In this document: positions 1-3,326 of the stretch, piece by piece | Layout: each line of letters begins with the position of its first letter | Position numbering within the stretch: position 1 is the first letter of the stretch | Origin: a virus | Lineage: Duplodnaviria; Heunggongvirae; Uroviricota; Caudoviricetes | DNA length: 7,330 bases | IMG/VR virus record: IMGVR_UViG_2609459769_000015 | Strand: one strand, 5' to 3' | The notes under the pieces: generated by a model | What the model was told of the DNA's origin: nothing | What the model saw: only the letters and a program-made list of their open reading frames with translations | Databases searched by the model: none | Translations under genes and position numbers: made by a program

Positions 1-183
1 ATGACATTTTTACAGCTTATTTTATTGTATTTCTGCACGGCAGTATGTGCGTTATATCTGGTGAGTGGTGGTTATAAGGCCATCAGAAATTATGTTCGCC
101 GCAAAATTGAGGACGCAGCAGCTGAAAAACTCAGTAAAACAGCGCAGGTAACTCCGCTCCCAAAAGACCCGACCCAGCCCTGA
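1..183 (+). CDS. Hypothetical small membrane protein (60 aa): N-terminal hydrophobic helix FLQLILLYFCTAVCALYLV followed by a charged tail
   Basis: ORF begins with ATG at window position 1 (its promoter/RBS, or an upstream extension, would lie outside the window); stop TGA 181-183; 36 bp upstream of the next gene on the same strand. Confidence 0.35.
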   Translation: MTFLQLILLYFCTAVCALYLVSGGYKAIRNYVRRKIEDAAAEKLSKTAQVTPLPKDPTQP

Positions 184-218
184 TTGCAGGGCTTTATTCC
201 CGCATAAGGAGGATATAC

Positions 219-473
219 ATGCCAGAAATTAAAGGCACCGTCACTGAAGACCTGGTAAAACAGGCACTGTATTCCGGTGAAGTAAATAAGTTGCTGAAAG
301 CGCAGGTCCGCAAGGATTTTGAGGCACAAATCGACACTTACGTTGATGAAGTGCTGGCAAAACTTATTGGGCCAGCAGTTGCGGCCAGTGATGCTGATAA
401 TGAGCCGAAAACCGACGCGCAGCCAGAGCAACCAGACCCGGCTCAGCCCGGAACTGACAGTACCATGATGTAA
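219..473 (+). CDS. Hypothetical acidic protein (84 aa) with Pro/Gln/Asp-rich C-terminal tail
   Basis: ATG at 219 preceded by strong Shine-Dalgarno AAGGAGG (205-211); natural-looking composition; stable hairpin immediately after the stop. Confidence 0.5.
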   Translation: MPEIKGTVTEDLVKQALYSGEVNKLLKAQVRKDFEAQIDTYVDEVLAKLIGPAVAASDADNEPKTDAQPEQPDPAQPGTDSTMM

Positions 474-478
474 CAATA

Positions 479-506
479 CAAACCGGTGGTGTCCTCTGCC
501 GGTTTG
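479..506. terminator. Hairpin (8-bp stem CAAACCGG / CCGGTTTG, 12-nt loop) just after the 219..473 stop; possible terminator between convergent genes
   Basis: Perfect inverted repeat at 479-486 / 499-506; no clean U-tract on the plus strand, modest T-rich run on the minus-strand side. Confidence 0.3.
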
Positions 507-530
507 ACACTAATGAAAACATCTTTGCCG

Positions 531-572
531 CTATCCAGCCATATGTAATCGCTGGATAGTATTTCGTATTCA
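531..572 (+). terminator. Hairpin (9-bp stem CTATCCAGC / GCTGGATAG, 11-nt loop) followed by a T-rich tract TATTTCGTATTC; candidate intrinsic terminator
   Basis: Perfect inverted repeat 531-539 / 551-559 followed by T-rich sequence 560-572. Confidence 0.3.
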
Positions 573-640
573 GAAATATAGCTGCTTATGGAGCAGTCAA
601 TCCTGCTTCCCCATCCGGGCAGGCAAATGAACCGGTATCA

Positions 641-934
641 TTAGTCCGATTCACGCTTTTGTAGAATCGTTCCCAGAATGCTATACAGCTCATTAGCCTG
701 TTGCTCCATCATTGAGACGGAGGCTATACGGTGCAAAGTGATTTCAGGAGGTGGCACACCTCCATCTTCTTGCTGTGGAGGAAAAACATAAGATTTAATA
801 AAAAAGTTGAAGCATATGAACTCTCCCGCACTCGAACTGTATTTGCAGGCATCTGAATAATCGGAAAAATAATCATTATAGATTTCCGCATTTTCAATCA
901 TTTTTCGATTTCTCGTCGTTACATGATTGTCCAT
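641..934 (-). CDS. Hypothetical protein (97 aa), divergently oriented from com-mom
   Basis: ATG (reverse complement of 932-934) preceded by Shine-Dalgarno AAGAGG with 5-nt spacer; no family recognised by eye. Confidence 0.5.
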   Translation of the reverse strand: MDNHVTTRNRKMIENAEIYNDYFSDYSDACKYSSSAGEFICFNFFIKSYVFPPQQEDGGVPPPEITLHRIASVSMMEQQANELYSILGTILQKRESD

Positions 935-1057
935 AGCAGCCTCTTACGCTGGCAATTAACCAATTGACTTCTATAAATTAGTTGATTTGTTTGCTTTGCG
1001 GTATTCAAATGTACAATCATTCAGCACTTATGCGTTACAGCACCGTTTAAAATTAGT

Positions 1058-1147
1058 GATCAAACTCATAAATTTTCGCTAATGACATTTCGTGTTATTT
1101 GTTGTATCAATTAAATAAATCAAATCGATCGTTTTTGTCGATCGATT
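1058..1147. promoter_or_regulatory. com-mom upstream control region: three GATC (Dam) sites at 1058, 1127 and 1140, the latter two inside a perfect 9-bp inverted repeat AATCGATCG-N7-CGATCGATT (1123-1147)
   Basis: Read directly from sequence; AT-rich 250-bp intergenic region between divergent genes; candidate -35 ATGACA (1082-1087) and -10 TATCAA (1105-1110) are weak. Confidence 0.5.
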
Positions 1148-1190
1148 GAGTGATAAAGATATCAACAACAAAGCAGGAGGTTATGCGGCC

Positions 1191-1391
1191 ATGTATCGAA
1201 ACATACGGTGCCGACATTGTAACAAGCTACTGGCACGAGCCAGCTTCAGTTATCTGGAAGTTAAATGTCCGCGCTGTAAAACCCTCAATCAAATCACATC
1301 TCAGAGCGCCACAGAGCACCCCACATACACAAGGAAATCCTGTCGTGGGGAACAGAAAGCAAGTTACATCCCGTATCATCAGCACGCCTGA
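1191..1391 (+). CDS. com: Com-like zinc-finger translational activator (66 aa), Mu Com family
   Basis: ATG 1191 preceded by AGGAGG (1175-1180); Cys4 pattern CRHC...CPRC ([30 protein letters not shown]) closely resembles phage Mu Com; 3' end overlaps the start of the mom-like ORF as in Mu. Confidence 0.85.
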
Positions 1392-2082
1392 ACTTATTCA
1401 CTATAACGACAATATCGTCGGTTATGGCTCCCGTGAGTTACGGGTTGAGACAATAAGTTGCTGGCTGGCCCGGCTGGTCGTCGTCAATAAACATTACAGC
1501 CATCGTTTCGTAAATAATTCCTACCTTCATCTGGGCATATTTTCAGAACGGGAGCTGGTTGGCGTAATGCAATGGGGTTATGCCCTTAATCCAAACAATG
1601 GTGCACGCGTCGTAACTGGCACGCAGAACCGCGAATATATGGAGCTTAACCGGTTATGGCTGCATGACTGTATGCCGAGAAACTCCGAATCAAGGGCAAT
1701 CAGTTACGCGCTCAAACTAATCAGACAACTTTATCCGCAGGTGCAGTGGGTTCAGTCGTTTGCAGATGAGCGTTGTGGCTGTCTTGGTGTCGTGTACCAG
1801 GCAAGCAATTTTGATTATGTAGGCAGTCATGAAACAACATTCTATGAACTTGATGGCGAGTGGTATCACGAGATTTGCAAGAATGCAATCAAACGAGGAG
1901 GACAGCGAGGTGAACATCTGCGGGCTAATATCGACAGAGCCAGTGTTCATAAATTCCGTCAGTTTCGTTACATCCGGTTTCTGGACAAGAGAGCCAGAAA
2001 ACGCCTTAACACAAAGCTATTCAAAGTCCAGCCTTACCCAAAACCACAAACAGTTAAAACTGGTTTGAAAGAGAGTGAATGA
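1345..2082 (+). CDS. mom: Mom-like DNA modification protein (acyltransferase-fold adenine-modifying enzyme), about 245 aa if initiated at GTG 1345
   Basis: Long ORF overlapping com out of frame; motifs KHYSH, NSESR, SFAD recalled from Mu Mom; candidate start GTG 1345 with AAGGAAA (1331-1337) upstream; start position is uncertain (the ORF is open from 1150). Confidence 0.75.
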
Positions 2083-2117
2083 ACGCTTAAAAACTCATTC
2101 TAAAACTCAAAAGAAAA

Positions 2118-2158
2118 GCGCCGATTTAGTATCAAATAAGTTGCGTATCGGCGTTTTT
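2118..2158. terminator. Candidate bidirectional intrinsic terminator between convergent mom and dam: stem CGCCGAT / ATCGGCG (2119-2125 / 2147-2153), T5 on plus strand, T-rich run on minus strand
   Basis: Inverted repeat with 21-nt loop, followed by TTTTT (2154-2158) and preceded by AAAAGAAAA (2109-2117) which gives a U-tract for the opposite strand; the loop is long, hence moderate confidence. Confidence 0.4.
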
Positions 2159-2193
2159 CAGCGGTATCAAATGAAATGCAAATCGGTATCAAA
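2128..2193. repeat. Three direct copies of GTATCAAA (2129, 2164, 2186), two within an exact 10-bp repeat CGGTATCAAA (2162-2171 and 2184-2193, 22 bp apart)
   Basis: Read directly from sequence in the mom-dam intergenic region; function unknown. Confidence 0.4.
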
Positions 2194-2244
2194 AAAATCG
2201 CCGCGCTATATTAAAGCCGCTGCAGTTGTTCATATCAGCATGGC

Positions 2245-3102
2245 TCATGCACGCACTCCGTACACGGCAGAACTATCCACGCCACGCGAAGGATCAAATC
2301 CCACCCAGCAGCGCGCCCCAGAAACAGCGATGATTTCTGTTGCAGATTTACTCTCGCCAGCCGACACGCCGATGCTGCGTTTTGCCTTGATGTAGTGGTG
2401 AGTGAAATTTCGATACAGCGAACGGATCAGGGATGTGTCACTGTTAGAAACAATGACTGGATGACCTTCTGATGATCGATATTCAAGAACAGATGCCAGG
2501 TGATACTGGTCATCTTCAGTGAAGCCGTTAGTGTGATAGCCGGAAAACGTACCGTCATAAGGCGGATCGCAATACACCACATCCCCCACCTGCAGCATCG
2601 CCAGCGTTTCATCAAAGCTGGCGCAGATAAACGTTGCTTGCTGGGCTTTCTCTGCAAATGCGCGAATTTCTTTTTCAGGGAAATACGGATTTTTATAATT
2701 ACCGTATGGAATGTTGAAATGCCCGCTCTTGTTATAACGACATAACCCACGGTAACCATGACGATTGAGATACAGGAAATATACCGCTTTCATGAAATCA
2801 GTAATTTCAGTGGAGTAATTAAACTCCTGCCTTATGTTGTAATAAGCCAACTCCCTGTTTGCTTCCTCAAATAAAGCTCTGGCACGAGATATAAACGCCT
2901 CGCAATCAGCAGCAACCTTTTTATAGAGGTTGATTAAATCAGGATTAATATCCGCAACAAGATAGCTGGGGTAATCCGTCTCCATCATCACAGCACAGGA
3001 ACCCGCGAAAGGTTCAACCAGTCGCGGGCCAGCAGGAAGGTGTTTTTTCAGTTCGGACATTACGGCGGTTTTATTTCCCGCCCATTTCAGGATGGTGCTC
3101 AT
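2245..3102 (-). CDS. dam: DNA adenine methyltransferase, Dam family (D12-class N6-adenine MTase), 285 aa
   Basis: Strong resemblance to E. coli Dam along the length: [15 protein letters not shown] (AdoMet motif), [15 protein letters not shown], catalytic DPPY; start ATG at 3100-3102 overlaps the upstream stop in an ATGA junction. Confidence 0.9.
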
Positions 3103-3326
3103 ACAGCACCCCCGTTGTAATGTTTGCCTTTCAGCTCTGCGATTTCCTGACAGGTAATGCAAAGCTGCACACCCGGAATGGCACGGCGGCGTGCTGGCGG
3201 AATTGGCGCTTCACACTCAACGCAAAGCACGCGGGACACGCCCGGCGTTTTGGCACGGGCAGCACGGATATGGCGCTGGCGTTCTTCTTCAACGCGCTGC
3301 TGTACGAGATCCATTGCATCAGCCAT
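3099..3326 (-). CDS. TraR/DksA-family C4 zinc-finger protein (75 aa)
   Basis: CVEC...(17 aa)...CITC four-cysteine motif and size typical of phage TraR-like proteins; start overlaps the upstream gene stop (TAATG). Confidence 0.8.
   Translation of the reverse strand: MADAMDLVQQRVEEERQRHIRAARAKTPGVSRVLCVECEAPIPPARRRAIPGVQLCITCQEIAELKGKHYNGGAV

Follow-up and report, generated by a model that had tools for sequence, protein, structure and literature searches.

A Dam-methylatable palindrome upstream of com-mom in a Mu-like Escherichia coli prophage is predicted to be half of a two-part OxyR-type operator

We propose that the perfect inverted repeat at positions 1123–1147, upstream of the com and mom genes of a Mu-like E. 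coli prophage, serves the host LysR-type regulator OxyR as the methylatable half of a two-part operator, homologous to the Dam/OxyR region of Mu mom and following the design seen at agn43 and gtr. Based on the sequence comparisons below, we put the probability of this reading at roughly three in four. The window, as we use the term here, is the whole 7,330-nucleotide stretch of DNA that was analysed. Judged by its sequence, the core motif GATCG-N7-CGATC is a Dam-methylatable version of the OxyR dimer site, which is a known class, and the locus has the features of that class: a GATC pair 13 bp apart within one half-site, agreement with the OxyR consensus at the level of proven sites, a partner half-site at tetramer spacing, and constraint. 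The element resides in E. coli chromosomes, and E. coli carries dam and oxyR; a prophage adenine methyltransferase gene of the D12 class is also present at 2245–3162.

The palindrome consists of two nine-base arms, AATCGATCG (1123–1131) and CGATCGATT (1139–1147), which are 100% complementary and are separated by the 7-nt spacer TTTTTGT (1132–1138). The first-pass annotation had described a perfect inverted repeat with an N7 spacer and a Dam site in each arm, and the repeat is real: it is the sole match in the whole window even with up to two mismatches allowed, its pattern occurs in 0 of 200 dinucleotide-preserving shuffles, and it is single-copy in the roughly 39-kb Mu-like prophage. The two Dam sites lie at 1127–1130, inside the left arm, and at 1140–1143, inside the right arm. 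Each arm had also been said to centre on its GATC; a GATC is indeed contained in each, although not exactly at the centre. The GATC starts are 13 bp apart, the same spacing as in Mu, agn43 and both gtr pairs, and the two sites are positional homologues of GATC-2 and GATC-3, respectively, of Mu and agn43. Because the arms contain the overlapping small palindromes ATCGAT and CGATCG, the sequence can equally be read as TCGATCG repeated directly at 13-bp spacing. It ends 43 nt before the ATG of com (1191), in agreement with the earlier figure of 44 bp. Within positions 1–2291 of the window the only other GATC is at 1058. This GATC, together with a nearby imperfect inverted repeat (1049–1076), was considered as part of the operator and set aside, because homology with other prophage variants starts only at about 1082–1096, so that both lie outside the segment the variants have in common.

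Downstream of the palindrome, a Shine-Dalgarno sequence read as AGGAGG (1175–1180, plus strand), invariant in all haplotypes, precedes com (1191–1391, plus strand), which encodes the zinc-ribbon translational activator of mom (Pfam Zn_ribbon_Com PF10122, E 7.5e-13, and RefSeq annotation of an identical copy). The mom gene (1345–2082, plus strand; Pfam Mom PF25680, E 7.8e-78) encodes the DNA adenine modification enzyme, 78% identical to Mu Mom, and its GTG start overlaps the end of com, as in Mu. The mom frame is open for a further 195 nt upstream of GTG 1345, which gives a 310-aa open reading frame from GTG 1150 that spans all of com in another frame; one codon of this extended frame is an ATG, at 1183, which follows the Shine-Dalgarno sequence by 2 nt.

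Window positions 1–2210 are the right end of a Mu-like transposable prophage, whose terminal segment (2083–2210, plus strand) finishes with the bases ...CGCCGCGCTATA at 2210, unlike Mu, which has TG...CA ends. Five independent insertions share this same last base, ...CGCCGCGCTATA, and then pass at once into different flanks; among the full-length matches listed from complete E. coli genomes, the match ends at window positions 2210–2223 and is followed by different host genes. Near the end are three [GA]GTATCAAA repeats, AGTATCAAA at 2128–2136 and GGTATCAAA at 2163–2171 and again at 2185–2193, which look like transposase-binding sites. An identical copy of the region (L002 and L031) belongs to a prophage whose gene set is of Mu type (head, tail, transposase, Gam, Mor family and invertase); in L002, RefSeq also annotates a 'tRNA-OTHER' at 539–618, flanked by genes for the minor head protein and for virion morphogenesis. 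In the window, the Mu-like element is inserted in a P2/186-like prophage (dam, TraR-like, CII, CI and integrase genes), 34 bp past the stop codon of that prophage's dam gene. Intact relatives, such as Salmonella phage RE2010, have a replication gene directly after dam, so the P2-like early operon has been split here by a whole Mu-like prophage. Between the invertase/DUF6645 region and com-mom lie DUF1378 (1–183) and DUF826 (219–473), which are usually lambdoid, and their presence identifies the right arm as accessory and mosaic.

The closest comparison is with Mu itself. In the account given in PMC7549136 (citing Sun & Hattman, 1996) and in PMC2909390, OxyR binding upstream of Mu mom is controlled by three GATCs that lie within 43 bp, and methylation of these sites prevents it. 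In the Mu sequence (L001) the GATCs cluster at 1160, 1178 and 1191, and by position these are the three Dam sites of the literature. The window sequence had been described as looking different from the OxyR-bound site of Mu, a view that the alignment overturns: AAATCGATCG-N8-GATCGATT is present in both, collinear upstream of com, reading AAATCGATCG-GTAATACA-GATCGATT in Mu and AAATCGATCG-TTTTTGTC-GATCGATT in the window. More broadly, ...GATCGAATCAATTAAATCGATCGGTAATACAGATCGATTATG... of Mu aligns with ...TATCAATTAAATAAATCAAATCGATCGTTTTTGTCGATCGATTGAG... of the window without gaps over a 46-bp two-part site; the GATC spacing (13 bp) and the gap separating the two parts (16 nt) agree as well, and in both phages, which are transposable, the site precedes com-mom at the right end.

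The two loci also differ. Whereas Mu has three GATCs, the window has two, GATC-1 being replaced by TATC; the arms pair over 8 + 8 bases in Mu and over a perfect 9 + 9 in the window; the palindrome centre is 83 bp from the com ATG in Mu and 56 bp in the window; and the upstream neighbour is gin in Mu and an orphan open reading frame here. The C-binding dyad of Mu, TTAT-N6-ATAA, and the adjoining −35 segment have no counterpart in the window. Specifically, no Mu-type C dyad was found between the palindrome and the candidate −10 elements, where there are only 4–12 bp compared with a segment of ~28 bp in Mu. With the dyad and −35 segment missing, the window operator would abut the core promoter, whereas that of Mu lies at about −99 to −54.

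How well the site resembles a binding site for OxyR can be judged from the dimer consensus ATAGxTxxxAxCTAT (ATAGnTnnnAnCTAT), quoted in PMC2909390, against which 15-mers were scored at the 10 specified positions. The predicted half-site B, ATCGTTTTTGTCGAT at 1128–1142, scores 7/10, a moderate match in which position 10 is G where the consensus has A; the known sites score 7/10 (Mu), 8/10 (agn43) and 8/10 (gtr). A second predicted half-site, A, ATTTGTTGTATCAAT at 1097–1111, likewise scores 7/10 and lies 16 nt upstream of half-site B. Only 0.4% of the 15-mers in the window reach a score of at least 7. The AT-rich gap between the half-sites (1112–1127) is 12/16 identical to that of Mu, and because it is 16 nt long and ungapped in both phages, a 9-bp insertion (one helical turn) relative to Mu was ruled out. 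A 16-nt gap gives the best or joint-best upstream partner in nine of the ten com/mom-upstream loci scored; it does so in Mu, D108, L030, L004, L005, L016 and L020, a set that takes in a P2-like E. coli cassette (L030), one Symbiopectobacterium locus (L005) and loci from Edwardsiella, Pantoea and Sodalis. The exception is Symbiopectobacterium L015, whose best score, 7/10, comes with a 12-nt gap, whereas a 16-nt gap gives 6/10. At agn43 and gtr the half-site gap is 17 nt. Within half-site A, TATC (1105–1108) sits where Mu and agn43 have GATC-1, so that half-site A cannot be methylated and only half-site B is methylatable, as in each gtr half-site.

Variation among prophage copies follows the same two-part arrangement. 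Copies were gathered by means of the conserved leader string downstream of the site only, which makes their selection blind to the palindrome. Among 13 haplotypes from 33 copies, variable columns number 0/15 in half-site A and 0/15 in half-site B, compared with 4/16 in the gap, 8/19 in the upstream flank and 10/17 in the segment just downstream of the palindrome, and the exact palindrome is present in 28/28 IMG/VR contigs picked by the leader string. Two invariant blocks around a variable gap, one of the blocks free of GATC, are the pattern that would be predicted for a two-part protein site. Because the haplotypes are related, this invariance does not amount to independent observations, and it is supportive rather than decisive; for the window type and the O157 type alone, which are 93.7% identical, zero differences in 25 bp would be expected by chance with a probability of ~0.2.

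Two further switches share the design. In E. coli, agn43 (flu) is a Dam/OxyR phase-variation switch, and its OxyR operator, ATCGATCG-TTTATAT-CGATCGAT, has the same arms and the same 7-nt spacer length as the window, with a T-rich spacer; in full it reads TATCGATCG-TTTATAT-CGATCGATA, and its eight-base arm cores are identical to those of the window. Here, too, a second half-site lies 16–17 nt upstream, and the operator overlaps the core promoter region. Unlike the window, agn43 carries a GATC in its upstream half-site as well, three in all, and its promoter is a strong consensus one with the −10 inside half-site A, so that its operator spans the −10 and extends into the transcribed region; the window operator, by contrast, is probably upstream of the −10. 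The regulated genes also differ, a host adhesin for agn43 and a phage DNA-modification operon for the window.

At gtr of P22, both GATC-bearing OxyR half-sites are TTGATCG-N7-CGATCAA, and as in the window each regulated half-site is GATCG-N7-CGATC, holding a single pair of GATCs at 13-bp spacing. The gtr GATC pair lies in a single OxyR dimer half-site, and when the pair is methylated OxyR binding is abolished in EMSA (Broadbent et al., 2010, PMC2909390). Half-site C of gtr overlaps the −35 region, with GATCs at −46 and −33, and OxyR binding there represses (PMC2909390). Given a transcription start near 1164–1173, the GATC pair of the window would be at about −37 to −46 and −24 to −33. A clear difference is that gtr has three half-sites, OxyR(A), (B) and (C), which offer two alternative tetramer positions (one activating, one repressing), compared with one visible tetramer position in the window. 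GATCG-N7-CGATC thus appears as a recognisable signature of methylation-sensitive OxyR half-sites common to mom, agn43 and gtr. The earlier description of the palindrome as an operator-like site for a dimeric regulator is supported, and binding should be sensitive to Dam methylation, as was expected at that stage.

A promoter serving com would have to fit between the operator and the Shine-Dalgarno sequence (1175), which would place its −35 and spacer under the palindrome. Its candidate −10 region (1148–1165, plus strand) offers two possibilities, TGaTAAAGA (1151–1159) and TATCAA (1160–1165). In MAFFT the counterparts of the former are TGnTATCAT, a strong extended −10 found in P2-like com cassettes, and, at the Edwardsiella locus, TGaTAGATT; the latter has an ATCA core (1161–1164) that is invariant across haplotypes. 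A 9-nt indel linking the P2-like TATCAT to TATCA[A/T] at 1160–1165 was considered and rejected, because MAFFT aligns the P2-like extended −10 with 1151–1159 instead, and for this reason both candidates are kept. With either choice, the palindrome would lie over the −35/spacer at roughly −49 to −21, near the geometry of gtr half-site C. A consensus scan found no consensus sigma-70 site on the plus strand in 500–2300, and the best hit of a PWM scan, TTTAAA-17-TAAATT (1046–1074), is no better than the shuffle median and lies outside the segment conserved among variants; the genuine Pmom of Mu also scores poorly in the PWM scan. Both candidate −10 elements are weaker in the O157-type haplotype, which is the commonest, and some copies may therefore be poorly expressed.

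A separate observation concerns the 16 nt at 1148–1163, which form a hypervariable segment between the invariant palindrome and the invariant leader. E. coli prophages carry it in at least five clearly distinct forms (GAGTGATAAAGATATC, GCATGAGAAAGGCATC, AGGCGAGAAAGATATC, TGGTGAGAAAGATATC and TGATGAAGCAAACATC), and the segment could be an unconstrained promoter spacer or a site for a variant-specific factor.

For the proposed OxyR operator, we envisage the following mechanism. An OxyR tetramer would bind half-sites A (1097–1111) and B (1128–1142) while the GATCs of half-site B are unmethylated, or possibly hemimethylated. With just 4–12 bp between the end of the operator and the candidate −10 elements, OxyR in place would mask the −35/spacer region, and com-mom transcription would be shut off; we infer repression as the direction of effect. 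Full methylation by Dam of the two GATCs, 1127 and 1140, would keep OxyR off the site, and the promoter would then be accessible.

Other readings of the palindrome place its function with a different protein. One is a phage-encoded repressor, and the first-pass annotation had named the product of the divergent 97-aa open reading frame (641–934, minus strand) as a candidate regulator. The arrangement is suggestive, as this frame is divergent and the palindrome lies in the intergenic region common to both sides, but the candidate fares badly on closer comparison. It matches no Pfam family and no DNA-binding family, its only PHROG match (phrog_7175, unknown function) is not significant at E 0.26, the product is acidic (pI 4.3–4.7), and its homologues are unnamed E. 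coli and Shigella proteins only. By tblastn, it is present in L002 only, which is the same prophage in another genome, and is missing from the other palindrome loci examined: Mu, D108, SfMu, the O157-type prophages, the P2-like cassette L030, and the Edwardsiella, Symbiopectobacterium and Pantoea loci with the same GATC-pair site. Elsewhere the palindrome has other neighbours, namely an unrelated frameshifted frame in O157-type prophages, where the palindrome is identical, gin in Mu, and hok in L030, and DNA homology between prophage variants begins (~1082–1096) only downstream of the 97-aa frame. Control by such a repressor is, in our judgement, highly improbable. RefSeq calls an 86-aa version of this frame, starting at 901; among Mu-like prophages, the frame is confined to some of those in E. 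coli and Shigella. A late activator of the Mor/C family, acting as Mu C does at its dyad site near −43 in Pmom, is a somewhat better candidate, though still an unlikely one. The prophage has one gene for a Mor/C-family protein, immediately before the lysozyme gene (annotated in RefSeq as a 'Mor transcription activator family protein' of 140 aa); in Mu, the dyad bound by C adjoins a weak promoter on its upstream side; the palindrome centre would be ~30–38 bp upstream of a transcription start at ~1164–1173; and the lack of a consensus promoter makes an activator plausible. Against this, the palindrome occurs nowhere else in the prophage, and the late-type lysozyme and protease promoters of the same prophage share another, G+C-rich box, TCCGCAAAnCCnGCCCC, which is not found within three mismatches anywhere upstream of com. 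The same palindrome is moreover present in settings that involve no Mor/C protein: P2-like prophages, agn43 and gtr. The G+C-rich box itself, TCCGCAAA(T/A)CC(T/G)GCCCC at L031 8039–8055 (minus strand) and L002 1267–1283, lies ~20 nt upstream of TAYGCT, with a weaker copy upstream of the Mor/C gene itself, and is probably the late-activator box of the Mu-like prophage.

It is also conceivable that no dedicated regulator reads the palindrome. As a hairpin, it might form an intrinsic terminator on the minus strand, where a consensus scan finds a terminator-like 9-bp stem followed by TGATTTATTT, or a stem-loop in the com leader; the predicted RNA stems have energies of −12.6 kcal/mol on the plus strand (z −2.3) and −11.2 kcal/mol on the minus strand (z −3.3). 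Since any perfect palindrome folds, however, these energies add nothing. No minus-strand gene ends upstream of the palindrome, com and mom being on the plus strand; the plus strand lacks a T-run after the stem, the T-run on the minus strand is interrupted, and only 4/9 stem pairs are G-C. What relatives keep is the GATCs and consensus positions T6 and A10, not the stem pairing, the arms being imperfect in Mu, L004 and L005, and we consider a role as a hairpin barely credible. The palindrome could instead be an inherited relic with no present role, or a generic target of GATC-binding proteins such as SeqA, which can bind two GATCs about one helical turn apart. The missing Mu C site and the degenerate candidate −10 of the commonest haplotype would fit a relic. 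Both half-sites, including the GATC-free half-site A, are nevertheless invariant while the gap and flanks vary, and the two-part arrangement is kept across genera that differ at most other positions, which leaves this explanation improbable.

The operator that we favour is a feature of enterobacterial phages among the com-mom loci compared. A GATC pair 13 bp apart upstream of com/mom is present in Mu, D108 and SfMu and in Escherichia, Shigella, Edwardsiella, Symbiopectobacterium, Pantoea and Sodalis loci; it was not found in the com-mom loci of Pseudomonas phage JD024, Neptunomonas, Endobugula and Parathalassolituus. The com upstream region is present at ≥90% identity in about 235/5426 complete genomes, STEC O111 95JB1 being one of the carriers, and a scan of IMG/VR for exact ATCGATCG-N7-CGATCGAT returned 59 contigs, 35 of them with com-type cassettes. 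A common family of Mu-like E. coli prophages, itself uncharacterised, thus appears to have retained the classical Dam/OxyR control element of Mu mom.

In some related loci, the GATC-pair operator and com are followed by a different DNA-modification gene in place of mom. A C5-cytosine methyltransferase gene (Pfam DNA_methylase) occupies this position in L029 (1500–2816), a Mu-like prophage, and in L035 (8306–9611), and an N6/N4 methyltransferase gene does so in L030 (1410–2421) and L086 (2314–3349). The L030 cassette lies in a P2-like prophage, beside ogr and hok. The occurrence of operator plus com before varied DNA-modification genes suggests an exchangeable regulatory cassette, and the rearranged layout and the re-use of the operator and com leader before other methyltransferases provide testable cases of epigenetically switched DNA modification.

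The novelty here is modest: the methylatable sites number two instead of three, a Mu-type C site is missing, and the operator would abut the core promoter. No new principle is added. A search of the searchable literature found no description of the two-GATC operator variant, which is not proof that none exists, and the methylome papers on STEC O111 and ST131 make no mention of the palindrome site. A more speculative reading starts from the lack of a Mu-type C site and from an operator on the core promoter, as at agn43 and gtr: com-mom in the resident prophage could be a heritable ON/OFF epigenetic switch, and not only a late lytic function, and together with the methyltransferase sister cassettes it would represent a portable phase-variable DNA-modification module. 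We regard this as doubtful. If true, it would place a phase-variable module in a few percent of E. coli genomes, with subpopulations whose DNA is differently protected against restriction.

Several of the other palindromes in IMG/VR are AT-rich intergenic sites with a further GATC 18–19 bp away. Specifically, the exact palindrome with a third GATC ~18–19 bp off stands before other genes in L053 (605–1505), L080 (1007–1720), L058 (11445–12982), L040 (5107) and L075 (10158), and it is possible, judging by their sequence, that these non-com loci are further Dam/OxyR-switched phage genes. Downstream of the palindrome, both L053 and L080 have a family-25 glycosyltransferase gene (LPS biosynthesis), and L058 has a prophage tail-fibre gene.
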